DNA from: an uncultured Thiotrichaceae bacterium
Lineage (GTDB): Bacteria; Pseudomonadota; Gammaproteobacteria; SZUA-229
Direction of reading: 5' to 3'
Assembly (NCBI GenBank): GCA_964441285.1
Contig: CAYTUK010000001.1
Coordinates: 225,662 to 289,661 of the forward strand
DNA: 64,000 nt
A model generated the notes under the pieces. That model was not told the DNA's origin and searched no databases. It worked only from the letters and a program-made list of their open reading frames with translations. A program made the position numbers and the translations under genes. Positions 148 to 38,626 of this stretch are shown one piece after another; position 1 is the first letter of the stretch; the number at the start of each line of letters is the position of its first letter.

Positions 148-2151
148 TTACCATGGCTGAATACTATTGTGCTGGTTAGGTAGTTGGCTGTACTGATATA
201 AAAATTTTCGCCGCAGTAAGCCACCGGGGTCATCGGGTATACGCCGTAGCCATTGTTCAGTGGCTCTTTGATCTTCTGTAAGCGGGGCCTGACGTGGGTT
301 TTCTGCTTTCGTCTGTGGTGTCTGTTTTTTCTGTGGTTTCCCTTTTTGTTTAGCCTCGGCCTGTTTTAATGCTGCATCTTGCTGTTGCTGTTTCTTCTGT
401 TGTGCTGTCTGTTGTTTAGATGCTTGTTGGGATTTTTTAGCTGATTGTTTGTGTTTCTTTCCTTGTTGTTGCCCAGTTTTTGATGACTGCTGTTTCTGTT
501 GACTATTTTGTTTTTTCTGCTGATGCGGAGGGGCTTTCTGCCCCTGTTTAGTGGGGTTTTGTTGTTGATTTTTATTATTTTTATTTTGTTTGCTCTGTTT
601 GTTTTGTTTGTTTTGTTTGCTCTGTTTGTTTTGTTTGTTTTGTTTCTTACCGGATTTATTTTTTTTGTTTTTCCGCTGTTGTTTTTTAAGGGCTTTTTTT
701 ACCAGTTTTCGGTTATACACCGCATCTTTATTGGCTTTGTTTAATTTAATTGCTTCATTATAGGCGTGGATAGAGGCTTTATATTTGCCGGTTTTTGCCA
801 GTGCATTCCCCGCATTATAATAGTCATTACTGCTCGCAGTTGGTGTTTTATCATTCGCCTGTTTTGAGCGTATTAATGTCTGGTCAAACAGTTTTGTTGC
901 CTGTGCGTAGTTGCCGTTGCGATAAAGTGCGCTGGCTTTCCATTGTCTGTTGCTGAATATTTTTGCGGCTTTATTCGTATTACCGGTATTAAAGGCTCGC
1001 ATGGCCCTCTGGTTGGGTGTTAGCCAGAGATTTTTCAGAGAAAAAGAGGAGGCGAAGTGTGTGATGGTGGTTGCCGGTACCTGCGTTGTCTTTTCAGCCG
1101 CAAATCCAGATTGAGGAAAAGGTAAAATAAAAATAATGAATAAAGCGAGCCAGCCTTTTCGTGCCCAGAGTGCAGCAAAAAATAACAGCGGTAAAATTAG
1201 CCAGATACCTTCATCCTGCCAACTGTCTGCATGGATATTGGTGACTAATCTCTCATTGTTGATAGCATTATTGGCGTGCTGAGCAAAGAGTGCTGTCAGT
1301 TTCAGGGTATCACTGTTGTCGGCGGCAATGGATGTATACACACCACCGCCTGCAAGTGCCATTATGCGTAGCCGAGCTGGATTAAGTTTTGGGATGACAA
1401 TGGCGCCATTGGCATCTTGTAGAAAACCATTAGCAAGGGGTATTGGGCTGCCTGCTTCTGTCCCGATACCAAAGATGGAGACACGGTAGCCCTGGGCGCT
1501 AATTTTTTTTATCGCGCTCAAGTCTCGCTTATGGATGCCATCAGTAATGACGAGTACATCACCCTGTGTTACGCCAGCCTGGACAAATAAATTATGTGCT
1601 TTTGCCAATGCATCAGAAAGGTTACTTCCCTGTGCAGGCATCATCGAGGTCACCAGCACGGGCACCAGATTAGCGATGTTGCCATTATCATCGGTGAGCG
1701 GAGTGACGGTAAAGGCATTCGCTGCGTAAACAATCAGTGCTGTCTGTCCACCATGACGTTGTTTGAGTATATCGAGTAATTCGAGCTTTGCGCGTTCGAT
1801 GCGTGAAGGTTTAATGTCAGTGGCATTCATCGACTGTGATAAGTCCAGCAAAATAACCAGTGCGGACTGCTGTCTAAAAACCTGTTGTGGTAATTTCTTA
1901 TAAACGGGGCCAGCGAGTGCAGTAATGCATAGACTGGTTGCGATAAAGGTTAACCAGACGGGTAAAAAACTGCGCTTTCCCTGTTTGTCTGTGAGCATAA
2001 AAGGGAGCAGTTTAGCATCACAGACTTTTTGCCAGTTTATGTTTTGTCCGTGTTTTTTAATCATCCATATCAGATACAGCAGCAGTGGGATAAAGGCATA
2101 AAACCATTGCGGCCGCAAAAAATGTAGATGATGGATGATCTCGTTTATCAT
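148..2151 (-). CDS. vWA-domain plus TPR protein (BatB/BatC-like fusion) with a long Lys/Gln-rich low-complexity region
   Basis: 667-aa ORF. N-terminal TM helices, a vWA MIDAS motif (LLDLSQSM), TPR-like region (YYNAGNALAKTGKYKASIHAYNEAIKL), about 150 aa of K/Q-rich sequence, then WLRRIPDDPGGLLRRKF. Its start overlaps the stop of the upstream batA-like gene. Confidence 0.85.
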   Translation of the reverse strand: MINEIIHHLHFLRPQWFYAFIPLLLYLIWMIKKHGQNINWQKVCDAKLLPFMLTDKQGKRSFLPVWLTFIATSLCITALAGPVYKKLPQQVFRQQSALVILLDLSQSMNATDIKPSRIERAKLELLDILKQRHGGQTALIVYAANAFTVTPLTDDNGNIANLVPVLVTSMMPAQGSNLSDALAKAHNLFVQAGVTQGDVLVITDGIHKRDLSAIKKISAQGYRVSIFGIGTEAGSPIPLANGFLQDANGAIVIPKLNPARLRIMALAGGGVYTSIAADNSDTLKLTALFAQHANNAINNERLVTNIHADSWQDEGIWLILPLLFFAALWARKGWLALFIIFILPFPQSGFAAEKTTQVPATTITHFASSFSLKNLWLTPNQRAMRAFNTGNTNKAAKIFSNRQWKASALYRNGNYAQATKLFDQTLIRSKQANDKTPTASSNDYYNAGNALAKTGKYKASIHAYNEAIKLNKANKDAVYNRKLVKKALKKQQRKNKKNKSGKKQNKQNKQSKQNKQNKQSKQNKNNKNQQQNPTKQGQKAPPHQQKKQNSQQKQQSSKTGQQQGKKHKQSAKKSQQASKQQTAQQKKQQQQDAALKQAEAKQKGKPQKKQTPQTKAENPRQAPLTEDQRATEQWLRRIPDDPGGLLRRKFLYQYSQLPNQHNSIQPW
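586..645. repeat. Perfect tandem 27-bp repeat (2 units plus a partial unit) inside the K/Q-rich coding region
   Basis: Units 586-612 and 613-639 are identical (ttgtttgctctgtttgttttgtttgtt). They encode QNKQNKQSK repeats on the minus strand. Confidence 0.9.
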
Positions 2152-3164
2152 GCTTTTAATCGTGTAGAAAATAAAGGTAGTTTCAATAACAAGGCAAGTA
2201 AAGCGGCTATAAACAGTGCGGCACTTAATGGCAGATAAGACAGGGCTTTTGTTGGGCGATAAGATTTTTTCTCTTTTGCTACCGGCTCAATTTTATCCAG
2301 GATTCGATAAATACTTTCTAAATCAGCAGTATTGCGTGCGCGGAAGTAGCGTCCGCCGGTTATTTTTGCAATGGCTCTTAAGGTATTTTCATCCAGCTCA
2401 CGCGAACCACGGTTGCCAATACCAATAGTGTAGATTTTTAAACCCTTTCTGGCGGCAAGTTCGGCGGCTTTTCGCGGTGTTATTTCTCCGGCATTATTGA
2501 CCCCATCGGTGACGAGTATCAGCACACGGTCATTGTAAGGGTGTTTTTTATTATGTCTGTCTTTACTGGTTGCGTTGGCATTATCTTCCTGTAAACGTTT
2601 AACCGCCAGTCCAATGGCATCGCCAATAGCTGTAGCATTACCTGCCAGTCCGGTAACCGCCTCATGTAAGAATTTATTGACTGTTGTGCGATCAAAAGTA
2701 AGTGGTGCCTGCACATAGGCCTGGTCACCAAATAGAATCAAGCCGATGCGGTCACCGACTCGGTGTTCAATAAACTGGCTGATTACCGCTTTGGTTGCGG
2801 CAAGACGACTGACAGAACGGTTCATATAACGAAACGGTAGTTCCATACTTTTTGACAGGTCGACAGCAATTAATAAATCACGGCCGCTGACAGGCAGTTC
2901 TATCGCGTCACCTATCCATTGCGGGCGTGCGGCGGCAATGACCAGAAATAGCCATGCCAGCGCGTATAACAGTAATGGCCAACGCCGATTTCTGGGTTTT
3001 ATGCTGCTGTTTGTGGTTAATTTAAAATCTTCCAGGTAGGGGACATGCAGTGCGGCTTCGTTGGTCTGTTTTGCTCGTGGCAGCAGCCATCGTAATAACC
3101 AGGGCAGAGGGAATGCTACGAAGACCCAGGGCCAGAGGAAATGCACCATATTCAGCTGCATCAT
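2148..3164 (-). CDS. vWA-domain membrane protein (BatA-like)
   Basis: 338-aa ORF with N-terminal TM helices, MIDAS motif DLSKSM, LVTDGVNN, and a C-terminal TM helix. Start and stop overlap the neighbouring genes by 4 bp. Confidence 0.85.
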   Translation of the reverse strand: MMQLNMVHFLWPWVFVAFPLPWLLRWLLPRAKQTNEAALHVPYLEDFKLTTNSSIKPRNRRWPLLLYALAWLFLVIAAARPQWIGDAIELPVSGRDLLIAVDLSKSMELPFRYMNRSVSRLAATKAVISQFIEHRVGDRIGLILFGDQAYVQAPLTFDRTTVNKFLHEAVTGLAGNATAIGDAIGLAVKRLQEDNANATSKDRHNKKHPYNDRVLILVTDGVNNAGEITPRKAAELAARKGLKIYTIGIGNRGSRELDENTLRAIAKITGGRYFRARNTADLESIYRILDKIEPVAKEKKSYRPTKALSYLPLSAALFIAALLALLLKLPLFSTRLKA

Positions 3165-3778
3165 GCCTGCCGCTCCGATATGAGAGGCTTAAGTTTTTGT
3201 TTGCCACTATCCCTGCTTTGTCTATGGCGGCTGCTTTTTAACGGTTGCGCTGTTAGCCACTGCTCACAGAGTATTAGTAGCGTATCGGCATCGTACTCGA
3301 TGGTATTATTTTTAGCTGTGTCAGGTTCTGGCATATAAGGTGCGGTTAATAAAATCTCACCAAGCGGGCCATTAAATCCCGGTTGTTTTGCTGCCAGAGA
3401 AGTATCGTCAAGATAATTTAACCAGTTTTTTCCAGTGAGGCCTGCAGTGTTCTGGCGAGGGTAAAAACTGATGCTGGCGCGGCGTAATAAAGTGGATAAT
3501 TGTTGTGCCAGGCGGATTTTATTGTGCGTCTGAAGAAACTGTTTCTTAATGGTGTGAAACGTTTCGTTGGTGACACGTTTCAGGCGGCGCGCGTGGCGGA
3601 TTTTTTTTACCATAAAATAAATGGCTACAAGGCAAACGAGAGTCGCTAATACTAACCACCATCCCAGTGCGGGCGGCCACCATGATATAGCCGTAGGCAG
3701 ATGAATATCACGCAGTGGCAGATTGTGACTATTTACCATTGTTGGTAGTGCGGGGCTGGTTAAGATGGGATTAGGCAT
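3161..3778 (-). CDS. DUF4381-like membrane protein of the MoxR/Bat operon
   Basis: 205-aa ORF with LRDIHLPTAISWWPPALGWW followed by a TM helix, located between the DUF58 and BatA genes. Confidence 0.7.
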   Translation of the reverse strand: MPNPILTSPALPTMVNSHNLPLRDIHLPTAISWWPPALGWWLVLATLVCLVAIYFMVKKIRHARRLKRVTNETFHTIKKQFLQTHNKIRLAQQLSTLLRRASISFYPRQNTAGLTGKNWLNYLDDTSLAAKQPGFNGPLGEILLTAPYMPEPDTAKNNTIEYDADTLLILCEQWLTAQPLKSSRHRQSRDSGKQKLKPLISERQA

Positions 3779-3781
3779 GGT

Positions 3782-4741
3782 TTAACCTTTTACTGTGCGC
3801 AGCGGTTTGTTTTTAGCTGCACGTATGCCCAGACCATTCTGTAACTGTTCTAGCGTATCACCTTCGGTTGAGATTGAGAGCAAAAAAATGCGGTGTTGCA
3901 GGCTGAAGCGTTGCAGTGTTTGCAGGCGTTGTTCGAAGCGCTCATGGTAACTCTGGCGGGTTGCTTTACTGGATGCATTGATAAGCTGAATTGATTGACC
4001 ATTGGTTACTCGATAATGGCCAGATAAGGGGAGGTGCGTTTCAATGGGATCATAAATCTGGATCAGCATAACATCGTTATGGCGCGATAGATTGGCCAGA
4101 TGCGAATAGGCGGATTCATCCATTTCACGAAAGTCGCTTAACATAAAGATGAGACTGCCGGGGCGGACAACTTTACGCAGACGCGAGATTGAAGTTGCCA
4201 TATTACGCGCAGCGTGTGTGGACGAGAAGGTTTGTTGCCAGGCACTATGTTTGCAACTTCTACCGATAAAATCCAGCACGGCGGTTTTACCACGCCGTGG
4301 TCGAAGCTCAATATGTTGGTCAGCCGAGAAAATAAGTCCACCAAGCCGATCATTGTTTTCCGTAGCGCTCCATGCAAGTAAAGTGGCAACTGTGCTGGCA
4401 ACAACCGCTTTAAAACTGCCGCGGGTGGCAAAAAACATTGATGGATTTAAGTCCAGACATAAGAGTACTGGACGCTCACGTTCTTCACGAAAGATTTTGG
4501 TATGTGCCGTGCCGGTACGTGCAGTCACGCGCCAGTCCATGTTGCGAATATCGTCACCGGGAAGATAAAGACGTGACTCATCAAATTCCATGCCGCGACC
4601 CTTAAAAGAAGATAAATAAGCGCCGCCCTGTTGTGCATGGATTTTGCCACTATTAAGCGATAGTGTACCGGCTTGATCGCGCAATCGGATTAATGATTGT
4701 GGGCTTATCCAGGTAATATTTTCAGCGGATGGCTCTAACAT
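3782..4741 (-). CDS. DUF58 protein (vWA-like partner of MoxR)
   Basis: 319-aa ORF with GRGMEFDESRLYLPGDDIRNMDWRVTAR, typical of DUF58, immediately downstream of the MoxR ATPase gene. Confidence 0.85.
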   Translation of the reverse strand: MLEPSAENITWISPQSLIRLRDQAGTLSLNSGKIHAQQGGAYLSSFKGRGMEFDESRLYLPGDDIRNMDWRVTARTGTAHTKIFREERERPVLLCLDLNPSMFFATRGSFKAVVASTVATLLAWSATENNDRLGGLIFSADQHIELRPRRGKTAVLDFIGRSCKHSAWQQTFSSTHAARNMATSISRLRKVVRPGSLIFMLSDFREMDESAYSHLANLSRHNDVMLIQIYDPIETHLPLSGHYRVTNGQSIQLINASSKATRQSYHERFEQRLQTLQRFSLQHRIFLLSISTEGDTLEQLQNGLGIRAAKNKPLRTVKG

Positions 4742-4818
4742 TTGATCAATCTAAAATCTAATATTTTAATGGGTCTAATTCTAATCGGGGTAACTTTATA
4801 GGAAATGTGTTAATTAAT

Positions 4819-5793
4819 TTAAGGTACGGCAATACGTGAAATCAGCTTCTGAATAAAATGATCAGGCGTGATACCATCGGCTTCTGCCTCATAGGTTAAA
4901 ATGACGCGATGGCGTAGCACATCAAAAGCAATCGCCTGAATATCACCTGGGTCAACAAAATCCCGGCCAGCGAGCCAGGCATGAGCGCGGGCGCAGCGGT
5001 CGATTGCAATGGTCGCGCGTGGGCTGGCTCCATACAGTGACCAGTTGGCAAGATCATCACCATAAGCAGCCGGTTTGCGTGTTGCCAGTACCAGTTGTAA
5101 TAAATATTCCTGTAAATTATCGGCCATGTGCAGATTCAGCACTTCGTCACGGGCATCAAATATATCTTGCTGGCTGATCTTTTTAAGATTATCCAGATTG
5201 CCAATATCAGTAATACCTTCAATCGCTTCCTGCCTGACCAGTTCAAGAATTTTTCGTTCCGCATCAGCCTCTGGATAATCAATGGTAACGTGCATGAGAA
5301 AGCGGTCAAGTTGTGCCTCAGGCAGAGGGTAAGTGCCTTCCTGTTCAATTGGATTCTGCGTTGCCATGACCATAAAAAGCGGGGGTAATGGGTAGGTGGT
5401 TTTGCCAACCGTAATCTGGCGTTCTGCCATTGCCTCCAGAAGCGCCGACTGAACTTTTGCTGGCGCTCGATTAATTTCATCAGCCAGAACCAGATTATGA
5501 AATAACGGCCCTTGCTGGAAGCTGAAAGAGCCATCCTGGGGTCGATAAACCTCGGTGCCGGTGAGATCGGCGGGTAACAGGTCGGGGGTAAATTGAATAC
5601 GGTGGAAATTGCTTTCAATGCCATCACTAAGAACCTTAATGGCTTTGGTTTTCGCCAGTCCAGGCGCTCCTTCTACCAGTAAATGTCCATCTGCCAGCAT
5701 GGCAATAAGTAGACGGTCAACGAGTGCTTCCTGGCCAATAATGTGATTTTGTACGTGTTGTTTAAGACTAAGTATCGATTCTAGGCTAGACAT
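4819..5793 (-). CDS. MoxR-family AAA+ ATPase
   Basis: 324-aa ORF with Walker A GAPGLAKT, Walker B LADEINRAP, and VMATQNPIEQEGTYPLPEAQLDRF. Confidence 0.93.
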   Translation of the reverse strand: MSSLESILSLKQHVQNHIIGQEALVDRLLIAMLADGHLLVEGAPGLAKTKAIKVLSDGIESNFHRIQFTPDLLPADLTGTEVYRPQDGSFSFQQGPLFHNLVLADEINRAPAKVQSALLEAMAERQITVGKTTYPLPPLFMVMATQNPIEQEGTYPLPEAQLDRFLMHVTIDYPEADAERKILELVRQEAIEGITDIGNLDNLKKISQQDIFDARDEVLNLHMADNLQEYLLQLVLATRKPAAYGDDLANWSLYGASPRATIAIDRCARAHAWLAGRDFVDPGDIQAIAFDVLRHRVILTYEAEADGITPDHFIQKLISRIAVP

Positions 5794-5960
5794 GTTGTGC
5801 TTCTATTCAAAGTTAATATATTTGTGTTGGGTATCTCTGTTTTTGTATGTAACTAACAGATAGTTTATGTGCCTGAAAGTTCATTAAACATTTCATCCCA
5901 AAGGGAGGGTGTTTTATTGTGCTTTCGTAATGTACAATGCTGACAATTCTTTAAATTTCA

Positions 5961-6202
5961 ACCTCAGGTACCCGCCTTTAAATTTTTTTAAAGCGGGATA
6001 ATCGGGAAGTTGGTAAACCGGCAGAGTGTTGTCGGTAATTCCAGCACTGCCCCCGCAACGGTGATTGGTGAGATTTATCAGGAATAGCTGATTGATGAAT
6101 ATTAGCGACGCCACCCACTGCGAGAGTTTTTTTCGCGGGAAGGGGATAAATCAAGTAACAGCATATTGATACACACCATAAGTCCGGAGACCGGCCTGAG
6201 GC
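5961..6202 (+). promoter_or_regulatory. Cobalamin (B12) riboswitch
   Basis: Conserved core GGGAAGTTGGTAAACCGG...GGTAATTCCAGCACTGCCCCCGCAACGGTGA, then GCCACCCACTG...GGGAAGG, then a B12 box AGTCCGGAGACCGGCC at 6181-6196. The closing helix pairs CCTCAGG (5962-5968) with CCTGAGG (6195-6201). It lies 126 nt upstream of a TonB-dependent receptor gene. Confidence 0.85.
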
Positions 6203-6327
6203 TGTTTACAGTAGTCGCGGCGGGCGGCTGACCTGGTTTTGTGGTGCCTGTTCTTCCGTGTGCATCCTTCTGGTCAAGCCTCCTTTCTGCTTTTTTAAAT
6301 TAGAGTTAGAGTATCCAGGCAAATTTT

Positions 6328-8373
6328 TTGATTCACCCTGAACATAAAAGAGCGCGTTATTTTTTTTCGGTTTTTCTGTTACTGCTACAGGTGGCACCTG
6401 CGCGTGCGCAGGGATCACAAAATAATAAAAAATTAAAGGTATTAATTGATAAGGGACGAATCGACCGTGCTGTTGGTGCGGTGAATAAAAGGACTACCTC
6501 ATCAGCAAACTCAACCATTAAAGCCCAACGTTTTCGTCACGGTCTGCTTAACCTGCCAGAAATTCTTGAGCAGGAAGTGGGGGTGCAGGTTCGTTCAAGT
6601 GGCGGTGCAGGCAGTTTGTCAACTGTGGTGTTGCGCGGTGCCAGTGCACAGCAAGTAATGATTTATCTCGATGGCGTGCCATTAAACGATGCCTCTGGCA
6701 GTCCGGTGGATTTGAGCCTTATTCCGGTCAGTTCGATTGAACGCATTGATATTTATCGTGGTTCTACCCCGCTTGAACTGGGTAATCCATCCATTGGCGG
6801 GGCGATTAACATCATAACGCGGCAATCCTCGGTTTCACCGTCATCGATGGTGCAGGCAAACTCAAATGTTAATATCAGTACTGGCAGTTTCCATACCTAT
6901 AAGATTGGTGCTTCCTCAAAGTTGAGAACAAGGCAAGATGACTACCTTTTTAGTACCAGTTATCTACAGAGTAAAAATGACTTCAGGTTTGTGAATAACA
7001 ACGGAACACCGTTAAATCCGAATGATGATCGGGTTGAAAAACGCAAGAATGATGGTGTTAAACAGCGGGCATTACTGGCAAACTGGAAACATAAGGTCAA
7101 CCAGAAATACGACACTGAGGTACGCATGGATTTGTCTGACCGACATAAGGCGCTGCCCAGTGTAACCAATAATGCCGATGTGCAGACCTATCTGGATACA
7201 TTGCAATACCATTTACTGGGGCAGTTGAATGCACGTTCCGTCTGGCTTAAAAACCTGAGTTTTAATGCCAAACTGTTTGCCTCCAGAAAAAATGAAATTT
7301 TTGATGATTCATTAGCACAACTGGGTTTTATTAATCAGCGTACCGTGAGTGTAACCAGAAAAGCAGGAACGCAAATCTATGCACAGTTAAATCAGCAATA
7401 CTCAAGCTGGAAACTACTCAATAGTCTAAGCCTGGAGACCTATGACCATAGTAGTACACAGGCGCTGGTGAGCAGTGATACCAACAGTCGAAAACGACTG
7501 GCACTGTCAGTAGAAAATAACCGTTATTTTGATAACAATCAGCTGATTGTTAATCTGGTTTTACGTTATCAGCTTATTGTTGATGCGGTTGCCGCAACTA
7601 CTGATGCATTTGCTAATGTCACACCAGGGTTTAATATCAATCGGCAGTTGGTTAATCCGCAGCTGGGGGTTAAATACCGTTTTACTCAACACACCTATCT
7701 GACCGCAAATATTGGACAGTACAGTCGCGTGCCATCCTTTCTTGAACTGTTCGGTGGTGATGGTCTGTTGCTGGGTAATGTAAACTTAAAGCAGGAAACG
7801 GCATTAAATACCGATATGGGTTTTACCTATACCTGGTATAAACCCTATCACTGGTTACATCATGCGCGGTTTTATAGCGGGGTGTTTTATAACCGTATAC
7901 AAAATTTAATTGTACGTATTTATAATGGTCAGGGCCTGGGCAAGTCGGAGAATATTGCTGACGCACAGGTACGTGGTTTTGAAACCACATTAAAACTTAT
8001 GCCGGCTAAACACCATACGCTGCACATTAATTTAACCTTACTTGATAGCATCAATTATTCTGATATTACCAGTTTTCAGGGAAAAAGCCTGCCAGGTTAT
8101 TACCAGCAGAGTCTGGGCTTGCGTTATGCTTATCAGATAAATCACTGGCTATACCGTTTTGAAGTCGACATTAAACGTAATCTATTTTATGACCGCAGTA
8201 ATTTGCTGAAGGGCGATAATGTGAACCTGATTAATCTTGGCTTACGTTATTCTTTACAGAAATCCAGTATTGATTTTAAGGTGAATAATTTATTGAATGA
8301 GAATATTCGATATTTTCGTAATCGCCCGACGCCGGGGTTAAATATGTCACTTACCTACAACCATTTATTTTAG
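6328..8373 (+). CDS. TonB-dependent outer-membrane receptor, probably for corrinoid uptake (BtuB-like by context)
   Basis: 681-aa ORF with a TTG start, signal peptide, plug domain (VVLRGASAQQVMIYLDGVPLND, IERIDIYRGSTPLELG) and a beta-barrel ending in a terminal F. It is preceded by the B12 riboswitch. Confidence 0.88.
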   Translation: MIHPEHKRARYFFSVFLLLLQVAPARAQGSQNNKKLKVLIDKGRIDRAVGAVNKRTTSSANSTIKAQRFRHGLLNLPEILEQEVGVQVRSSGGAGSLSTVVLRGASAQQVMIYLDGVPLNDASGSPVDLSLIPVSSIERIDIYRGSTPLELGNPSIGGAINIITRQSSVSPSSMVQANSNVNISTGSFHTYKIGASSKLRTRQDDYLFSTSYLQSKNDFRFVNNNGTPLNPNDDRVEKRKNDGVKQRALLANWKHKVNQKYDTEVRMDLSDRHKALPSVTNNADVQTYLDTLQYHLLGQLNARSVWLKNLSFNAKLFASRKNEIFDDSLAQLGFINQRTVSVTRKAGTQIYAQLNQQYSSWKLLNSLSLETYDHSSTQALVSSDTNSRKRLALSVENNRYFDNNQLIVNLVLRYQLIVDAVAATTDAFANVTPGFNINRQLVNPQLGVKYRFTQHTYLTANIGQYSRVPSFLELFGGDGLLLGNVNLKQETALNTDMGFTYTWYKPYHWLHHARFYSGVFYNRIQNLIVRIYNGQGLGKSENIADAQVRGFETTLKLMPAKHHTLHINLTLLDSINYSDITSFQGKSLPGYYQQSLGLRYAYQINHWLYRFEVDIKRNLFYDRSNLLKGDNVNLINLGLRYSLQKSSIDFKVNNLLNENIRYFRNRPTPGLNMSLTYNHLF

Positions 8374-8545
8374 AAAACTGCGGCTTTAAGCCATGAATCG
8401 ACACTTTGCAATTAAAACATCCTGCTCCCGCGTTATGAAATTTCATAATAACGCTACTATCACCTGCGCTTCATGCGTTGAAGCAGAACATTTTAATCAC
8501 AAGCTGTTCAATCCAGACTTAAGCGGCAGATTTTTAGCTTATACA

Positions 8546-9775
8546 ATGAAAAGAATCATTGCATTATTGCTACTATTTTTAGTTGTGGCCTGTTCAAAAA
8601 CGACAACAAATGCGCCAGTGAATACTTCGGGTAGTACTGCAACCGGCATCAATTCAGATCCACTGTGTTTGTCAACAGGCATCCGTAATCAGCCTGTTAC
8701 ACCCGTTACTGCTGTGATTGCCACGACCGCTGCGGATTACAGCAGCGGGGCGCTGGCTATTGTTTCTGGTAATAGTCAGGGTCAGTTTTCATCCTTAAAT
8801 GCGTTAGACCCCACCGACAGTGATATAAGTATTGCGGCCTATGGTCAATATTTTTATCGTATTGGCCGTGCCTTTGCGGGTAATAACATTACCAAATTTT
8901 CTATCAATAAACCACAAACACCAATCTGGCAATATTCTGTTAATGCGACTACAGGCAGTGCTGTATTAAGCAATCCGCACGATATGGTTTTTGCCAGTGC
9001 AACCAAAGCCTATGTGCTACGTTATGGGACCACTAAAGCCTGGATAGTGAATCCATCAACAACGACAAAAACAGGCTTTAAAACGGGTGAACTTAATTTG
9101 TCTGCTTATGGCGGTATCGATGGTATTCCTGATATGGATAGTGCAGTGATTGCTGATGGTAAATTATTTATTACCCTGCAACGTCTGGAAGGTCCTATGT
9201 TGCAGCCGGATAATGTTTCTTATCTTGCAGTATTTGATATTAAGACAGATAAGGAAATCAATGTAGGAATTCCTGGTGACACATTGAAAGGCATTCCATT
9301 AAAGGTACGTAATCCGACAAAAATTCTGTATGACGCGACTACGGATGAAATTTATGTTCAGGGTTCTGGTAGTACCTTACCACCACTTAAATATGTGGGT
9401 GGCATTGAAGCGATTAATGCTAGTACGTATACCTCAAAACTGATTCTTGATGATGGCGATAAAAATAATCACCCCTATGGATTAATCTATCAAATGACAT
9501 TGGCTTCACCAAATATCCTTTATTTTGTTGGTTATGATGGCTGGCAGAATAATACTTTATATGTCATGAATATAAAGACTTCAAAGATTTTAAAAACCAG
9601 GGTAGCGCAACTTATTGGTGGTGATATCGGTGATATAACCACGGATAATCAGGGACGGGTCTGGGTTGGAGATAATGCTAATGCGGCAATACGCATTATT
9701 GACTCAGGCAGTTGTGATCAGGTGGCGGTGGTTTCGACTCGACTGAATCCGGAGAAAATCGTTTTTACACAATAG
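8546..9775 (+). CDS. Lipoprotein with a probable beta-propeller fold (YncE/BtuG-like position)
   Basis: The ORF-track start at 8393 is probably too far upstream. The ATG at 8546 gives MKRIIALLLLFLVVAC with a lipobox. The rest is repetitive and rich in beta-strand-like sequence. Confidence 0.65.
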   Translation: MKRIIALLLLFLVVACSKTTTNAPVNTSGSTATGINSDPLCLSTGIRNQPVTPVTAVIATTAADYSSGALAIVSGNSQGQFSSLNALDPTDSDISIAAYGQYFYRIGRAFAGNNITKFSINKPQTPIWQYSVNATTGSAVLSNPHDMVFASATKAYVLRYGTTKAWIVNPSTTTKTGFKTGELNLSAYGGIDGIPDMDSAVIADGKLFITLQRLEGPMLQPDNVSYLAVFDIKTDKEINVGIPGDTLKGIPLKVRNPTKILYDATTDEIYVQGSGSTLPPLKYVGGIEAINASTYTSKLILDDGDKNNHPYGLIYQMTLASPNILYFVGYDGWQNNTLYVMNIKTSKILKTRVAQLIGGDIGDITTDNQGRVWVGDNANAAIRIIDSGSCDQVAVVSTRLNPEKIVFTQ

Positions 9776-9853
9776 TAGAACGAGAGGCACAGCAGGCGCC
9801 TTAGCAGTTGCCTGCTGAAAAAAATTTAACTTTTTTAAAACGGAAACACAATC

Positions 9854-10666
9854 ATGAAGAAAAAATATGTATTCCCCACACTGCTAACGGCATTAATATT
9901 GTCGCCAGCTTCAGCCATTGCCGGACCTTATGCACCCGCTGTTGGGCAACCCGGTTCAACGGCAATCAATATGAATAACCCGATCATTAGTTCCTGGGCG
10001 ACCGGTTATACAAGTTATCTGCCTGGTGCGAATGTTTCATCAACCTGGCAGACACCATTAAAAGCCTTAGGTAAGGCGCAGGGAACATCCGGTGATGTTG
10101 TCAGCCTGGGAACGGGTGGGCAGATAACGCTAACTTTTAACGACCCGATTGCTAATGGTACAGGTGCTGATTTTGCGGTGTTTGAAAATAGTTTTAACAA
10201 TACCTTTCTGGAACTGGCAAAAGTAGCCGTATCCTCAGATGGAAGCAATTTTTTTACTTTCCCGACATACTCCTTAACGCCTTCAGCCGTTGGCGCATTC
10301 GGCAGTATTGATCCGACAAATATCAGTGGTCTTGCGGGTAAATATCGTCAGGGCTGGGGCACGCCGTTTGATCTTAATCTATTAAGTGGTATCCCGGCGC
10401 TGGATATCAATCATGTGTCTTATGTTCGTCTGCTTGATGTAGTGGGTAATGGTTCTATGAAAGATACTAATGGGCATCCAATTTACGATCCGTATCCTAC
10501 TACAGGCAGTGCCGGTTTTGATCTGGATGCAATCGGGGTAATGAATAGTCGTTCGACGGTGGTGCCTTTGCCTGCGGGTTTATGGTTGTTTATCAGCGGT
10601 ATGTCTTTATTAGGCTGGTTTGGTAAAAGAAAATTTTTTAAAATAGTTGAAAAAACAGGAGATTGA
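9854..10666 (+). CDS. Secreted protein with a PEP-CTERM (VPLPA-type) sorting signal
   Basis: 270-aa ORF with a signal peptide. The C-terminus reads [24 protein letters not shown], a motif followed by a TM helix and a basic cluster. Confidence 0.75.
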
Positions 10667-10667
10667 A

Positions 10668-11429
10668 ATGAAACAACAGTTATCTATGTCACTATTGCTT
10701 GTTGCAGGGCTTATCGCTACTTCAGCGTCGGCAAGTGTGGCAACATTTGATGATTTATCACTGCCTTCCACAGAATCCCATTACGCACCACAGGCAGCAA
10801 CTAATTTTATTAGTGGGGCGGCGAATTTTATCCATAATTTTACCAATTATGGTGGCGGCTGTTGCTGGAGTGGGTTTACCTATTCCAATATGACTGATAC
10901 TACCACTGCTGGTTATATCAATCAGTACAGTGCGGTTACCGGTGGCGGGGTAAATGGTTCAACAAATTATGCCATCTCAAACCCTGGATCATCATCGTTT
11001 TCGCGGGTTAATTTTGCTACCTCAACAAAAGTAACAGGGGCTTATTTTACTAATACCACTTACGCCTATCTGTCGATGTTAAACGGTGACAGTTTTGCCA
11101 AAAAATTTGCTCTGGGAGATTTTCTTACTTTAACCGTCAGCGGCCTTGACAGTAATAATCAGATAACAAATGCAGTTAATATCAGCCTTGCTCGTGATGC
11201 AAATCTGCTTCATCAGTGGGTCTGGGACGATCTGACACCTCTGGGTAAAGTGAATGCGTTGGAGTTTTCGCTGTCATCTTCAGATGTTGGCGCTTTCGGG
11301 ATGAATACACCTGCCTACTTCGCTATGGATAACTTAACCACGATTCCAGATGTACCCCTGCCAGCGGCTTTCTGGTTATTTGGCTCTGGGTTACTGGGTC
11401 TGGTTGGCATTGCTCGCCGCCGTTGCTAA
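10668..11429 (+). CDS. Secreted PEP-CTERM protein, DUF4465-like by motif recall
   Basis: ATG at 10668 follows AGGAG. Signal peptide, then FDDLSLPSTESHY...GGGCCWSGFTYSNMTD...NQYSAVTGGGVNGSTNYAI, and a C-terminal VPLPAAFWLFGSGLLGLVGIARRRC. Confidence 0.65.
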   Translation: MKQQLSMSLLLVAGLIATSASASVATFDDLSLPSTESHYAPQAATNFISGAANFIHNFTNYGGGCCWSGFTYSNMTDTTTAGYINQYSAVTGGGVNGSTNYAISNPGSSSFSRVNFATSTKVTGAYFTNTTYAYLSMLNGDSFAKKFALGDFLTLTVSGLDSNNQITNAVNISLARDANLLHQWVWDDLTPLGKVNALEFSLSSSDVGAFGMNTPAYFAMDNLTTIPDVPLPAAFWLFGSGLLGLVGIARRRC

Positions 11430-11490
11430 CCCTGTTTTTTATACACATCATCCCTGCCGAACAGTGATTACTAAAACGAATACTGATGCT

Positions 11491-11610
11491 CCAAGAGCGT
11501 CAGTCGCAGGGACGCGGGTGTCGGGCCGGCATGGATGTATTGACAGCGTGTCTTGAACAATAGGTGTTCTTTTTATCTGTTTCAGTAATAGGTATCCGTT
11601 TCATCCATCC
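11491..11610. repeat. MITE-like repeat, copy A (inverted relative to copies B and C, with an adjacent extra end fragment)
   Basis: ccaagagcgtcagtcgcagggacgcgggtgtc...gtcttgaacaataggtgttctttttatctgtttcagtaat aligns to the reverse complement of the copies at 34511 and 47442. A second ggtatccgtttcatcc fragment follows. Confidence 0.8.
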
Positions 11611-11676
11611 TGTTAGCATTTTCTTGGAGGAATTTTTATGTGTATTTTTTGTAGCGAATAAATTAATATCAATACT

Positions 11677-12231
11677 ATGGGGCATCGGTTAACAAAAATT
11701 TACACTCGCACAGGGGATGATGGAACAACTGGTCTGGCGAATGGTTCACGTATACCAAAAGATGATTCCCTGCTACACGCAATGGGTGATGTGGATGAAT
11801 TAAACAGCCAGCTGGCTGTATTACGATCACATATTTCCGGGCAGCTCGCACAACCAGTAACAATTATCCAGAATGAATTATTTAATATTGGCGCTGAACT
11901 GGCAATGGGCGAATGCTTTATTCAGCCATTGCATGTTGACTGGCTGGAACAGTCGCTGGATGATTTAAACACCGGGTTGCCACCATTGAAAGAATTTATT
12001 CTACCCGGTGGTGGACTGGCCGCCTCACATTGCCATATTGCAAGAGCCATTTGTCGACGTGCGGAACGTACCCTGGTTGGGGTTAACCGAGAGAAAGCGT
12101 TGAATAAGTGCTTGATGGCATACTTAAATCGCCTGTCTGATTTTCTATTTGTGCTGGCCCGTGTGATTAGTAAAGCAGCCGGTGAGAAAGAAGTTTACTG
12201 GCAGTCTGACAGGCTAAAACAGGGTAATTAA
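11677..12231 (+). CDS. PduO-type ATP:cob(I)alamin adenosyltransferase
   Basis: 184-aa ORF. KIYTRTGDDGTTGLANGSRIPKDD...GDVDELNSQL is the canonical N-terminus of this family. Confidence 0.9.
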   Translation: MGHRLTKIYTRTGDDGTTGLANGSRIPKDDSLLHAMGDVDELNSQLAVLRSHISGQLAQPVTIIQNELFNIGAELAMGECFIQPLHVDWLEQSLDDLNTGLPPLKEFILPGGGLAASHCHIARAICRRAERTLVGVNREKALNKCLMAYLNRLSDFLFVLARVISKAAGEKEVYWQSDRLKQGN

Positions 12232-12270: not shown

Positions 12271-13179
12271 ATGATAAGAATTGGCATTGATTTAGGTGGT
12301 ACAAAAATTGAAGGCATTGCTCTGTCGGAAGCCGGCGATGAAATATATCGCCGACGAATTGCCACCCCACAAGGTAATTATTCGGCAACATTACGAGGTA
12401 TTGTTGATTTGATTTCAACTATCGAAGCACAGACGCAGCAAGGCGGAAGCATTGGTATCTGTACGCCGGGTGCGTTGTCGCCAGTGACAGGTTTGATGCG
12501 TAATTCTAACTCGGTCTGTATGAATGGTCAGCCAGTGCAAAAAGATTTACAGGATTTATTAAACAGAGACATTCGTCTTGCCAATGATGCAAACTGTTTT
12601 GCCTTATCGGAAGCAACGGATGGCGTAGCAAAAAATTGTTCTATAGTATTTGGTGTTATTATTGGCACCGGTACAGGTGCAGGTATTGTTATTGATAAAA
12701 AAGTATTGTCTGGATCTAATGCAATTGCTGGTGAATGGGGACACAATCCATTGCCCTGGCCGGAGGATGTGGAATTACCTGGTGGCGAATGTTATTGCGG
12801 TAAAAATGGTTGTATTGAAACCTGGCTATCAGGGCCGGGTATGGTGCGAGATCATGAGCTACACAATAATGTCTTTGTTGACCCTGAAACGCTGGTTAAA
12901 CAGGCGCGTTTTGGTGATGAAGATGCCAGCGAAACACTGCAGCGTTATGAAAGCCGTTTAGCTAGAAGCTTGGCATACATAATCAATATTTTAGACCCGG
13001 ATGCGATTGTGCTGGGTGGTGGCATGGGTAACATAAAACGTCTGTATAAAAATGTTCCTGAATTATGGGGTGAGTATATTTTCTCTGCTGGGGTAACTAC
13101 ACAATTGCTGGCACCGGATCACGGCGATTCATCGGGTGTTCGTGGTGCTGCCTGGTTATGGAACGCTCAGATTTCCTAG
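12271..13179 (+). CDS. mak: ROK-family sugar kinase (fructokinase/mannokinase, Mak/YajF-like)
   Basis: 302-aa ORF, near-colinear with E. coli Mak as I recall it: MIRIGIDLGGTKIE, ANDANCFALSEA, GEWGHNPLPW, the zinc motif CYCGKNGCIETWLSG, and GDSSGVRGAAWLW. Confidence 0.85.
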   Translation: MIRIGIDLGGTKIEGIALSEAGDEIYRRRIATPQGNYSATLRGIVDLISTIEAQTQQGGSIGICTPGALSPVTGLMRNSNSVCMNGQPVQKDLQDLLNRDIRLANDANCFALSEATDGVAKNCSIVFGVIIGTGTGAGIVIDKKVLSGSNAIAGEWGHNPLPWPEDVELPGGECYCGKNGCIETWLSGPGMVRDHELHNNVFVDPETLVKQARFGDEDASETLQRYESRLARSLAYIINILDPDAIVLGGGMGNIKRLYKNVPELWGEYIFSAGVTTQLLAPDHGDSSGVRGAAWLWNAQIS

Positions 13180-14852: not shown

Positions 14853-16436
14853 TTACCAACTTTCGGCGGTGGCATTTTTCCAGTCATATTGCCAGTTATC
14901 GGGTAAGTTTTCAGCGCAAAGCAAACAGTTATGACCGATTGCTGGGTAAAGTTCTGCGTAGTTTGCTATCGTGGTACCATTTACGCGGCGATTGATATGG
15001 ATGGGTTTTAATTCTTCCAGACGTTTAATGCCACTGGCTCCAAGTAATTCAGTTAAATTTTTAACCGTTGAGTTGTGGTAGTTAGCCACACGTTGTCCTT
15101 TATTATCAATATTTAGTGCTTTGTAACGTGCTGGATCCTGGGTGGCGATACCCGTGGGACACTTATCAGTGTTACAGATGCGTGACTGAATACAGCCTAA
15201 CGCCAGCATCATTCCGCGTGCGCTGTTTATCGTGTCAGCACCTAATGCCAGCATCCGGGCCATATGAAAGGCAGTAAATATTTTGCCTGAAGCAATAAGG
15301 CGGATCTTATCGCGCAGGCCAAAACCGAGCAGGGCGCTGTTGACAAATATAATCGCGTCACGCAATGGTGTGCCAACCGAATTAGTTAGTTCAATAGGTG
15401 CTGCGCCAGTGCCGCCTTCACCACCGTCGACAGTAATAAAATCTGGCATAATACCCGTTTCCAGCATCGCTTTGCAGATGGCCAGAAATTCACTTCTTTT
15501 ACCCAGGCAGAGTTTAAATCCAATGGGTTTCCCGCCAGACAGTGTTCTTAATTTGCTGACAAAGTTGAGCAAACCTTTCGGGGTGTTGAATGCTGAATGT
15601 GCTGCTGGAGAAATGACATCATGGCCCATTGGTACATGACGAATTTCAGCGATCTCTCTGGTTAGTTTGGCCGCCGGCAAAATTCCGCCATGACCAGGTT
15701 TTGCGCCCTGGGAGAGCTTAATCTCGATCATTTTAACGCCATCAAGCTGCGCCTTTTTGGTGAATAGGTTTTCATCAAAATTACCGGCCTGATTTCGGCA
15801 ACCAAAATAGCCCGTACCGATTTGCCAGATAAGATCGCCGCCATATTTAAGGTGGTAAGGGCTTAGTCCACCCTCACCTGTATTGTGTGCAAAGTTACCA
15901 ATTTTTGCACCTTTGTTTAACGCCATAATTGCGTGTTTGCTTAAAGCGCCAAAGCTCATGGCCGAGATATTCAGTGGTGAGGCACTGTAGGGTTTTAAAC
16001 AGTCTGAGCCGCCAAACTTAATGCGCGGGTGTGTGTCTTCAATATGGAAGGGTAGCAAGGAATGGTTCATCCATTCATAACCTGTTCGATAAACATCAAA
16101 CTGAGTGCCGAAAGGGCGAGTATCGCGAACATTTTTTGCGCGCTGATAAACCAGTGCACGAAACTCACGATTGATTGGCCGGCCATTGATATTGGATTCA
16201 ACAAAATATTGCTGTATTTCTGGACGTATGGATTCAAATAGATAACGGAAATGACCGATAACAGGGTAAAGACGAAGAATAGTGTGTTTTACCTGAATGA
16301 AGTCATATATCCCCAGCAGGATAATGGGGCCGATAAAAATAAAGCCATAATAGAATCCTGCCCAGTTAGTAGCAAGCAGCAATAGCATGGCCGCTATCAA
16401 TATAGAAAAAATAATAAAACCCTGACGTACACTCAT
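14853..16436 (-). CDS. Membrane-anchored FMN-binding glutamate synthase family protein (GltB domain-2-like), paralog 1
   Basis: 527-aa ORF with an N-terminal TM segment, YPVIGHFRY, ISAMSFGALS, KLSQGAKPGHGG and TVDGGEGGTGAAP. Confidence 0.85.
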   Translation of the reverse strand: MSVRQGFIIFSILIAAMLLLLATNWAGFYYGFIFIGPIILLGIYDFIQVKHTILRLYPVIGHFRYLFESIRPEIQQYFVESNINGRPINREFRALVYQRAKNVRDTRPFGTQFDVYRTGYEWMNHSLLPFHIEDTHPRIKFGGSDCLKPYSASPLNISAMSFGALSKHAIMALNKGAKIGNFAHNTGEGGLSPYHLKYGGDLIWQIGTGYFGCRNQAGNFDENLFTKKAQLDGVKMIEIKLSQGAKPGHGGILPAAKLTREIAEIRHVPMGHDVISPAAHSAFNTPKGLLNFVSKLRTLSGGKPIGFKLCLGKRSEFLAICKAMLETGIMPDFITVDGGEGGTGAAPIELTNSVGTPLRDAIIFVNSALLGFGLRDKIRLIASGKIFTAFHMARMLALGADTINSARGMMLALGCIQSRICNTDKCPTGIATQDPARYKALNIDNKGQRVANYHNSTVKNLTELLGASGIKRLEELKPIHINRRVNGTTIANYAELYPAIGHNCLLCAENLPDNWQYDWKNATAESW

Positions 16437-25859: not shown

Positions 25860-26660
25860 TTACAATGAAACCGGTTTCATTGTAAAACAATCGCTTGTTC
25901 CAAGAATTATACCATACTGGCGTAACTGTTCAAGCGTGGTTTTGCCGCCCTGTTTTACCACGTTAGCATCAGGATGCTTGATTTCATGGATGATAATATC
26001 GATTGCCTGCTCTCCAGTTATCGCTTTACCTTTCATTGCATTTCCTTCAAATAGATTAATTAAACGTGCGGTTGCAGGCGTTATGTTAAGAAATTTAACC
26101 TGATCGTTATTGTTGCGGTAGACGACCAGATGGCTGGCCTGTTCTGGAGGTACTTTGGGCAAGTAATCCGGTCCCATCAGGTGAACTGGAAACTGATAAG
26201 CCAGTGACCACGCCAGTGGTGAGAATACAGGTGGGTTTTTCAGTAAATCACCGTTGGCATTGACATTGGTCATGTCAATGGTTTCAGTGGAGATATGCAA
26301 TGCTATTTCAATCCACTCGTAATGTGCCAGTTCCAGCAATCCGGCGGGATCCTCGGCTTGTGGTGTGCGCTCTTTTTCTAGATATTGGATAAATTCTTCC
26401 GAGATTTTCAGAAAGTAGGGAGTATGAGAGCGGTGGTTGGCGAAAAAATCGCGTACCATTTTATGCCAGTTTTTCTCATTATATATTTTTCGTATAACAG
26501 GAAAACCATTAGCAATAAAATTTTCTATATTGTTATAAAGTAATTCGCGGTAAACAGCCATGCGCCGATCTTCAATGCCTGCAGGGAGTGCATTTTTCTC
26601 CGGGTCGCGGAGATGCGCTGTAAAGGCGTGCTGATGTTGTTTAAACACCGCTTCAGACAT
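25860..26660 (-). CDS. DUF2063-family protein (MbnC/BufC/HvfC-like partner of MNIO enzymes)
   Basis: 266-aa ORF with FKQHQHAFTAHLRDP...YRELLYNNIENFIANGFPV...FFANHRSHTPYF. It overlaps the DUF692 gene by 8 bp. Confidence 0.85.
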   Translation of the reverse strand: MSEAVFKQHQHAFTAHLRDPEKNALPAGIEDRRMAVYRELLYNNIENFIANGFPVIRKIYNEKNWHKMVRDFFANHRSHTPYFLKISEEFIQYLEKERTPQAEDPAGLLELAHYEWIEIALHISTETIDMTNVNANGDLLKNPPVFSPLAWSLAYQFPVHLMGPDYLPKVPPEQASHLVVYRNNNDQVKFLNITPATARLINLFEGNAMKGKAITGEQAIDIIIHEIKHPDANVVKQGGKTTLEQLRQYGIILGTSDCFTMKPVSL

Positions 26661-34420: not shown

Positions 34421-34510
34421 GGTGGTTCTCGTATGATTAGCTTCTGTGGTTTAAATATGGCGCGATTATACAATGACATGTCGCCTGACATCAGTATTTA
34501 ACGTTGATTT

Positions 34511-34632
34511 ATTACTGAAACAGACAAAAAGGCGACTATTGTTCAAGACACGCGGTAAATACTTCCATCTAAGCTCAACACCCGCATCCCTGCGGCTAAT
34601 GGTCTTGAACAATAGGTCGCCTTTTTATCCAT
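34511..34632. repeat. MITE-like repeat, full copy B
   Basis: attactgaaacagacaaaaaggcgactattgttcaagacacgcgg...cccgcatccctgcggctaatggtcttgaacaataggtcgcctttttatcc. The terminal arms of about 35 bp are inverted repeats of each other. Confidence 0.85.
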
Positions 34633-38492: not shown

Positions 38493-38626
38493 ATTGAGTC
38501 TGTAATGACACTAATCAGTGTGCCAATAGAGAAAAGTCTTGAAAATATAGGCGAGTGAATGGTATAAAACAGTTCTTCAATCTTCACCGGAAGTCGCCAA
38601 CAAGCCAGAAAGTAGCAGGAGAGTTA

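Follow-up and report, generated by a model that had tools for sequence, protein, structure and literature searches.

The DNA analysed here is a 64-kb window of a contig from an uncultured Thiotrichaceae bacterium, and all positions given below are those of the whole window. It contains a cobalamin riboswitch followed by six genes, all on one strand, which include a candidate operon for the capture, import and salvage of corrinoids (vitamin B12 and its relatives). The features are as follows.

5949–6213 (+): cobalamin riboswitch aptamer (Rfam RF00174)
6328–8373 (+): TonB-dependent receptor with Plug and TonB_dep_Rec_b-barrel domains, divergent and BtuB-type by context
8546–9775 (+): BtuG-like lipoprotein with a lipobox, modelled as a beta-propeller (AlphaFold2, Foldseek)
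9854–10666 (+): secreted protein of 270 amino acids (aa) ('X270'), with a signal peptide, a modelled beta-sandwich of ~210 aa (short BtuH-like domain) and a VPLPA-type PEP-CTERM tail
10668–11429 (+): BtuJ-family DUF4465 protein (PF14717), with a signal peptide and a VPLPA-CTERM tail
11490–11590 (strand not assigned): dispersed repeat of ~100 nucleotides (nt) in the DUF4465-pduO spacer, with a second copy in the window and no part in the proposed function
11677–12231 (+): PduO-type ATP:cob(I)alamin adenosyltransferase (PF01923, TIGR00636)
12271–13179 (+): sugar kinase of the ROK family

The initial annotation had named a B12 riboswitch, a receptor, a lipoprotein, two proteins with PEP-CTERM tails and a PduO enzyme, and all of these are present. 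Two start codons had to be corrected, and the riboswitch lies outside the interval first described, just upstream of its start at 6328. The aptamer matches the full RF00174 model (positions 1–189) with 94.6 bits against a gathering score of 31.5 (E = 3e-22), and is the sole Rfam family found in the 64-kb window. A weak terminator-like hairpin is present at 6212–6230, and folding of 6185–6345, the region around the expression platform (between 6214 and 6327), gives an uninformative z of 0.94. The first gene carries PF07715 (Plug) and PF00593 (barrel), the architecture of TonB-dependent transporters. Its best PDB matches include BtuB of Escherichia coli (E = 7.6e-15) and BtuB1 and BtuB3 of Bacteroides thetaiotaomicron, with 25–27% identity to BtuB1 in the plug and C-terminal barrel. 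The B12 specificity assigned to it follows from the riboswitch and the neighbouring genes, not from scores on curated models.

The clearest of the accessory proteins is the product of the gene at 10668–11429. A resemblance to DUF4465 had been noted in the initial annotation, and is borne out by a PF14717 match of 163.5 bits (gathering score 25, E = 8e-48) and by PDB matches to 4jqr, 9hmu (D5EK51 with B12) and 9fct (BtuJ1), with E values of 5e-26 to 2e-17. DUF4465 is the BtuJ family, an augmented beta-jellyroll that binds B12 through loops; conserved tyrosines in the HI-loop (NTPAY) and the DE-helix make the contact, and B12 binding was demonstrated in 2025–26 for BtuJ1, BtuJ2 and six divergent members, D5EK51 included, from Verrucomicrobiota, Planctomycetota, Bacteroidota and Cyanobacteriota (PMC13398666). 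Both tyrosines are kept in the window protein: Y146 of BtuJ1 (TTYDYL) corresponds to TTYAYL, and Y245 (NTPSYF) to NTPAYF. Judged by this conservation, the protein is a predicted corrinoid binder of the BtuJ family. The view that exosortase-sorted corrinoid binders had never been characterised has to be qualified, since a report of 2026 describes B12 binding by soluble DUF4465 domains of Verrucomicrobiota, Planctomycetota and Cyanobacteriota; that report makes no mention of PEP-CTERM or exosortase (PMC13398666). The crystallised D5EK51 construct stops at ...VVPE, where a PEP-CTERM tail would begin, and the DUF4465 protein of Haloferula sargassicola (locus L057), which is of the same genus as one of the tested proteins but of a different species, has a full PEP-CTERM tail.

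Directly upstream is the gene for the 270-aa protein, the stop codon of which is separated from the DUF4465 start (ATG at 10668) by a gap of 1 nt. Apart from its tail, this protein has no match in Pfam, NCBIfam or PDB by sequence or profile. The AlphaFold2 model is a beta-sandwich (predicted local distance difference test, pLDDT, 91), and the best Foldseek match in the PDB is 8blw chain B (E = 1.3e-4), which is BtuG1, a BtuGH fusion bearing a BtuH domain. The next matches, with similar scores, are the discoidin domain of muskelin and CBM32 modules, and on its own the fold search with this model is ambiguous. Homology to BtuH emerged only once a BtuH profile was built from the B. thetaiotaomicron locus. 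Part of BtuJ1, rebuilt from a PDB alignment, served as query for that locus in gut metagenomes, and BtuK2, BtuH1, BtuB1, BtuGH and BtuJ1 were read off the fetched sequence. A pairwise BLASTP check against BtuH1 finds a 33-residue core (45% identity, E = 6e-4), and a shallow profile of the 270-aa protein compared with BtuH1 gives 76.6%. With diverse profiles (132 sequences of the 270-aa family and 105 BtuH sequences), hhalign gives 96.7–98.1%, with E values of 4e-10 to 5e-13 over 138–233 columns; among the controls, the reversed and ten column-shuffled BtuH profiles reach at most 3.1%, and a propeller profile 1.9%. The relation holds in both directions with HMMER: the BtuH hidden Markov model (HMM) matches all 132 sequences of the 270-aa family (best 4e-9), and the 270-aa core HMM matches all 105 BtuH proteins in two separate segments (best 1e-12). 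The core common to both reads VSLG-GG-IT--F---I-N--G-DF-(V/I)--N-F---E----V-VS-D, followed by a C-terminal segment FDL...I-(F/Y)V(K/R). By these profile comparisons, the 270-aa protein and the B12-binding domain of BtuH are remote homologues. The domain of the 270-aa protein is the shorter one, with ~210 residues against ~270, and a BtuH segment of 50–60 residues is absent from it. The parallel to BtuB-BtuG-BtuH drawn in the initial annotation is thus closer than was noted, with the 270-aa protein as the BtuH homologue, but it erred in the DUF4465 protein, whose family is BtuJ and not BtuH.

Two further comparisons concern the same protein. Homology between the 270-aa family and DUF4465 was considered and rejected: hhalign gives 94–95%, but the confident columns are the common signal peptide and PEP-CTERM tail, and the low value for BtuH against DUF4465 (5.5%) also counts against it. 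Residues 80–144 of the 270-aa core, and the cores in L037 and L061, weakly match NCBIfam NF033170, 'LIC_13355 family lipoprotein', of Leptospira (E = 4e-4 to 1e-3), which may represent a third branch of a BtuH-like superfamily.

The lipoprotein gene can be called from 8393, but its real start is taken to be the Met codon at 8546, because a lipobox opens there (MKRIIALLLLFLVVAC; LVVAC/S) and because this start agrees with the N-termini and lengths of homologues. The protein has no Pfam or NCBIfam family match, and its homologues number at least 316, unnamed and mostly from uncultured Gammaproteobacteria. The propeller-like repeats reported initially are supported by an AlphaFold2 model, built from a 52-sequence alignment, that is all-beta (pLDDT 89.5, predicted TM-score, pTM, 0.88) and in which the lipidated Cys is followed by ~35 disordered linker residues. 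In a Foldseek search of the PDB, ranks 1–15 are occupied by BtuG1, BtuG2 and BtuG3 together with the BtuG-like structure 3dsm; these 15 matches have E values of 2e-14 to 8e-11, target TM-scores of 0.72–0.79 and 13–16% identity. Generic propellers (XusB, G-beta, YncE, AztD) score E = 1e-10 or worse, and the profile of the lipoprotein family gives E = 0.04–0.7 against BtuG chains. A relation to BtuK was rejected (hhalign 0.5%). The genomic context is repeated elsewhere, with lipoprotein, receptor and riboswitch found together in the window and in loci L013, L120, L121 and L122. In L120, the propeller-family gene follows a riboswitch-controlled receptor amid genes for CobS, CbiA, a BtuF-like protein, BtuCD-like ABC components and PduO. 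L121 is syntenic with the window (MoxR/VWA genes upstream; PduO, ROK and RlmG downstream); its genes for receptor, propeller and PduO follow a riboswitch in that order, 10 and 36 nt apart. The propeller gene of L122 comes with its own cobalamin riboswitch. By modelled fold and context, the lipoprotein is BtuG-like, and by analogy it would most likely act as a corrinoid-binding lid or loader on the transporter.

The 270-aa family is large and well conserved. Among scored candidates there are more than 7,000 homologues, with 55–75% identity across classes among the matches listed, and 44–77% across phyla. A scan with one genome per species finds carriers in at least 585 species, spread over some ten phyla or classes: Gamma- and Betaproteobacteria, Desulfobacterota, Planctomycetota, Verrucomicrobiota, Kiritimatiellia, Spirochaetota, Myxococcota, Gemmatimonadota and Bacteroidales. 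An exhaustive profile search yields 3,491 representatives at 50% identity, 1,297 of them with E = 1e-30 or better. Context was counted in the best 80 species-level loci, as same-strand features within 6 kb of the 270-aa gene; many contigs are truncated, and the counts are lower bounds. A DUF4465 domain occurs in 53 of the 80 loci, a TonB-dependent receptor in 50 and an upstream cobalamin-riboswitch-like element in 56; at least one of the three is found in 71 loci and all three together in 30. Of the riboswitch loci called by nhmmer, all eight that were tested with Rfam were confirmed, and one of seven nhmmer-negative loci also has an AdoCbl-type (adenosylcobalamin) riboswitch. Gene order is variable, and the 270-aa gene also occurs without DUF4465, for example as riboswitch/270-aa/receptor or receptor/270-aa.

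Fusions are frequent. With core-only HMMs, 16 open reading frames (ORFs) join a 270-aa core to one to three DUF4465 cores, in both orders. In L076, a gammaproteobacterial metagenome-assembled genome (MAG) of the Spongiibacteraceae, one lipoprotein combines a propeller of the window type (residues 1–393, E = 1e-78) with a 270-aa domain (424–630, E = 4e-87), which is the architecture of BtuGH in Bacteroides. Five Planctomycetota loci (L024, L048, L060, L074, L084) encode giant proteins of 1,400–2,000 aa with an N-terminal domain of the 270-aa type and three DUF4465 domains, and from their domain content these are potential multivalent corrinoid binders. Two apparent fusions in Aquabacterium, L019 (7743–9545) and L037 (7899–9491), were set aside, the internal PEP-CTERM tail being retained; they may be two genes read through as one, with a single ORF running from the 270-aa gene into the DUF4465 gene after a recent stop-codon loss or owing to an assembly error.

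These associations bear on what the 270-aa protein does. Rather than binding corrinoids itself, it might be an adaptor or tether, for instance a discoidin- or CBM32-like module that holds BtuJ near the receptor or in exopolysaccharide, leaving binding to BtuJ and the propeller. The fold search, in which muskelin discoidin and CBM32 score like the BtuGH chain, fits such a role, as does the absence of the BtuH segment with H476 and Y510, and a scaffold would likewise be compatible with the frequent fusions that add between one and three DUF4465 domains. However, the protein is homologous to a domain whose sole known activity is B12 binding (PMC8941943), its degree of identity across phyla fits a universal, invariant ligand, and its gene also stands beside a receptor and riboswitch where DUF4465 is missing. 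A non-binding adaptor is accordingly considered possible but rather unlikely.

The identity of the transported ligand can be considered in the same way. Genes for NikR and HupE/UreJ (nickel/cobalt) flank the cluster of riboswitch, receptor, 270-aa gene and DUF4465 gene in L005 (Methylomonas sp. DH-1) and L011/L012 (Aquabacterium), which suggests that genes for cobalt and corrinoid acquisition are clustered there. The same flanks, and a receptor that is not a curated BtuB, could also be taken to indicate import of something other than a corrinoid, such as cobalt or nickel chelates, under B12 control. Against this, crystal structures show DUF4465 proteins with bound B12 (PMC13398666), the window protein retains the tyrosines that make the contact, and partners of the BtuG and BtuH types bind corrinoids, so that a metal-chelate substrate is very improbable.

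The 270-aa and DUF4465 proteins carry the only two PEP-CTERM-like tails in the window. That of the DUF4465 protein (VPLPAAFWLFGSGLLGLVGIARRRC) scores 30.8 bits on TIGR03370 (VPLPA-CTERM; cut-off 25.35), and that of the 270-aa protein 17 bits, below the same cut-off; PF07589 is matched by 38 of 51 close homologues of the latter. Both agree with described PEP-CTERM/exosortase substrates in having a tripartite tail, composed of a VP-x-P motif, a hydrophobic helix and a basic cluster (PMC1569441). Across the family the anchor changes with the lineage. PEP-CTERM tails (VPLPA, VPVPA, VPEP) occur in Proteobacteria and in some members of Desulfobacterota and of the Planctomycetota-Verrucomicrobiota-Chlamydiota (PVC) group. 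A Bacteroidales protein with 270-aa and DUF4465 domains ends in a type A sorting domain of the type IX secretion system (T9SS; TIGR04183, 38 bits), Spirochaetota members have an N-terminal lipobox, and in L076 the 270-aa domain is anchored by its fusion to a lipoprotein. Such variation is as expected of a module displayed outside the cell by means of the host's own sorting system. Two further C-termini look like lineage-specific sorting signals, both on 270-aa-family and DUF4465 proteins: a Gly-rich ...GGCFI(x)5-8 end in many Desulfobacterota (L028, L041, L053, L061, L062, L085), and an extra C-terminal domain ending in F(W/Y)R(L/V/I) in many Verrucomicrobiota/Kiritimatiellia (L054, L056, L057, L064, L068–L071, L073, L080, L081).

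Surface exposure and exosortase dependence of the two tailed proteins are presumed from these patterns. A different location would follow if the C-terminal helix kept them anchored in the inner membrane, where they might receive corrinoids in the periplasm in the manner of BtuF. This would account for the lack of btuF and btuCD in the window and would agree with a tail consisting of a transmembrane helix and basic cluster in a window with no exosortase gene found; the final location of PEP-CTERM proteins is, moreover, poorly documented. Nevertheless, the T9SS domain on the same domains in Bacteroidales implies passage through the outer membrane, B. thetaiotaomicron has BtuH and BtuJ as surface or vesicle proteins (PMC13616437), and L120 has a separate BtuF-like protein in addition to the propeller. 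A periplasmic role for the tailed proteins thus appears quite improbable.

The last gene of the proposed set encodes a PduO-type enzyme (PF01923, E = 1.5e-55; TIGR00636, 186.5 bits against 108.45). A spacer of 247 nt containing the dispersed repeat separates it from the DUF4465 gene, and PduO lies beside the 270-aa gene in only 2 of ~75 loci. On this evidence pduO and the ROK kinase gene after it could be a separate transcription unit, and the adenosylation theme a coincidence. Related genomes argue otherwise: in L121, a single riboswitch precedes the whole series, in which pduO begins 36 nt after the propeller gene and shares 4 nt with the ROK gene; in L013 the distance from the DUF4465 gene is 101 nt; an adenosyltransferase gene is nearby in L120 and L122. 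No terminator-like site was found in the DUF4465-pduO spacer, nor, by the terminator scan, in the other gaps downstream of the riboswitch leader, and in promoter and terminator scans of the locus the signal was no richer than in shuffled sequence. A separate pduO unit is therefore judged unlikely. The repeat itself (11490–11590, +) has the core GGATGTATTGACAGCGTGTCTTGAACAATA, and its second copy, at ~34470–34570 (–), is flanked by a 13-nt inverted repeat (TATTGTTCAAGAC...GTCTTGAACAATA). Over the repeat, the word depth of the assembly exceeds that of the flanks ~3.5- to 12-fold, and metagenome contigs are interrupted there. The repeat could be an element similar to a miniature inverted-repeat transposable element (MITE) or a repetitive extragenic palindrome (REP), or a small structured RNA.

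The same six-part set is kept, with tight spacing, in L013, a related MAG and the closest relative of the window, and parts of the set are found again downstream of cobalamin riboswitches in dozens of genomes. The arrangement is therefore not due to chance, and a single transcript is presumed. In L121 the genes for receptor, propeller and PduO occur without the tailed pair, which L013 has; the pair thus looks like a module that was added to an older operon of receptor, propeller and pduO. The receptor-lipoprotein spacer (8374–8545) is 172 nt in the window and 10–11 nt in L120 and L121, and the genes abut in L013; gene callers close the spacer in the window by extending the lipoprotein ORF to 8393.

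Taken together, the locus is probably an operon repressed through a cobalamin riboswitch and devoted to scavenging and salvage of corrinoids at the outer membrane. When cellular AdoCbl is low, the riboswitch would permit expression of five products: a BtuB-type transporter, a BtuG-like lipoprotein, a BtuH-like protein, a BtuJ protein and PduO. The 270-aa and DUF4465 proteins would be exported by Sec, their PEP-CTERM tails processed by exosortase, and the proteins displayed on or around the cell, where they would capture corrinoids and pass them to the lipoprotein-transporter pair. The lipoprotein, positioned on the transporter, would load the receptor, TonB would energise import, and PduO would turn the corrinoid taken up into the coenzyme by adenosylation. 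Within this scheme we infer that the propeller and the 270-aa protein bind corrinoids, and likewise the order of hand-over between the capture proteins. By analogy, the mechanism is most likely the Bacteroides relay rebuilt with different anchors. A broader proposal is put forward tentatively, at somewhat less than even odds: the 270-aa domain may be a widespread, hitherto unrecognised class of corrinoid-binding module, a minimal BtuH with a re-built site, and, outside Bacteroidota, the partner of BtuJ and BtuB with the strongest conservation, which in Proteobacteria and some PVC bacteria exosortase would plant, together with BtuJ, in the envelope or exopolysaccharide as a B12 'sponge'.

The nearest known system is operon 1 of B. 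thetaiotaomicron, with the order riboswitch-btuB1-btuGH(BT1490)-btuJ1(BT1491) (PMC13616437). Both have a riboswitch and then, in the same order, a receptor, a propeller lipoprotein, a BtuH-type domain and a DUF4465 protein. In the window, however, the propeller and the H-like domain are encoded by two genes, VPLPA/PEP-CTERM tails take the place of a lipoprotein anchor on the H-like and J proteins, btuFCD, BtuK and PKD domains are missing, PduO is attached, and the host is an environmental gammaproteobacterium and not one of the gut Bacteroidota. With BtuH (BT1488, BT1956; PDB 7BIZ) the 270-aa protein has in common the homologous core and the linkage to btuB and a riboswitch, but it is shorter, lacks the H476/Y510 segment, PKD domains and lipobox, and has another anchor. 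The window lipoprotein resembles BtuG (BT1954 and paralogues; PDB 8BMY, 8PTF, 8OKV; PF16819) as a propeller lipoprotein placed right after the receptor under a B12 riboswitch, whereas its low identity (13–16%) comes with no PF16819 or significant profile match. The DUF4465 protein is like BtuJ (BtuJ1, 9FCT; BtuJ2, 9I2L; D5EK51, 9HMU) in family membership and both B12-binding tyrosines, and differs in having a Sec signal and VPLPA-CTERM tail in place of a lipoprotein anchor; the tested members are also non-gammaproteobacterial. E. coli btuB with btuFCD shares TonB-dependent uptake across the outer membrane and the cobalamin riboswitch, but has no accessory capture proteins, whereas the window has no nearby btuFCD and its receptor is only distantly BtuB-like.

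Several observations weigh against the interpretation as a corrinoid relay. The receptor fails the curated BtuB equivalog models, with 112.6 bits on TIGR01779 (TonB-B12; cut-off 599.7) and 77.3 on NF007926 (836). A check of the lipoprotein against BtuG-like models, suggested at the outset, was negative at the sequence level: PF16819/DUF5074 does not match the window protein and matches five of its 52 relatives weakly (best E = 1.3e-3), and as hhalign gives 15% between the lipoprotein family and the G-domain of BtuGH, homology to BtuG is not established by sequence. The corrin-contacting residues of BtuH2 are Q333, H476 and Y510 (PMC13616437). When these were mapped on 7biz (residue number = chain index + 100), H476 and Y510, two of the three, fell in the segment absent from the 270-aa protein, and Q333 (PAPGQ) aligned to no conserved Gln in the family; ligand binding by the 270-aa protein is therefore not readable from conserved contacts. 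Neither an exosortase gene nor btuF or btuCD was found in the 64-kb window. To our knowledge, no general route by which PEP-CTERM proteins and proteobacterial lipoproteins reach the outer surface has been established. Promoters could fit into the spacers of 172 nt (receptor-lipoprotein) and 247 nt (DUF4465-pduO), and RNA-seq sought as evidence of co-transcription yielded no RNA run, the window sequence being present only in DNA metagenomes (hydrothermal-vent and others); a metagenome contig spanning the riboswitch to the end of pduO simply breaks at repeats.

Few microbes make B12 and most need it, and capture systems therefore shape communities. Of the parts of the locus, the riboswitch, receptor and PduO are already known, and so is B12 binding by DUF4465. 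The surface relay from BtuG, BtuH and BtuJ to BtuB has been described only for gut Bacteroidota, and a 2026 review places BtuH predominantly in that group and regards its fold as without recognisable homologues. The literature searched contains no proteobacterial counterpart of the whole BtuB/G/H/J relay and no BtuG-like lipoprotein family outside Bacteroidota. Nor does it recognise the large unannotated family as a short BtuH homologue tied to BtuJ, BtuB and B12 riboswitches, or PEP-CTERM tails as an anchor for corrinoid capture. Earlier analyses of DUF4465 neighbourhoods missed the 270-aa partner because there is no Pfam model for it. All parts of the relay have counterparts in environmental Proteobacteria; PVC bacteria, Desulfobacterota and Spirochaetota likewise have the BtuH-like and DUF4465 parts. 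An unannotated family that is present in at least 585 species and numbers ~3,500 representatives at 50% identity gains a testable function. Known PEP-CTERM cargo has been associated with exopolysaccharide and the formation of flocs (Haft et al. 2006, PMC1569441), and no nutrient-capture cargo is described in the literature searched. Exosortase sorting gains a concrete class of cargo, and if the 'sponge' proposal is true, this would be its first role in nutrient capture, and a multi-protein cobamide relay would be a pan-bacterial strategy and not a speciality of gut Bacteroides.

The remainder of the window contains no cobalamin biosynthesis genes that could be found. Directly upstream of the riboswitch and divergent from it, at 148–5793 (–), are genes for a MoxR AAA ATPase, DUF58, DUF4381, VWA and VWA-TPR proteins (Bat/aerotolerance-like), and this MoxR/VWA set is also kept beside the B12 operon in L121. 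At 25860–27534 (–) there is an MbnB/TglH/ChrH-family enzyme for the modification of ribosomally synthesised and post-translationally modified peptides (RiPPs) (PF05114, E = 4.5e-104) with a DUF2063/NGO1945-type partner, a pair that resembles methanobactin-like or DUF692-type peptide-modification pairs. Two other features are unrelated to the B12 locus: two stand-alone proteins with the flavin mononucleotide (FMN) domain of glutamate synthase, at 14853–16436 and 27751–29256 (–), and a cytochrome c fused to a YncE-like beta-propeller at 38555–39898 (+).

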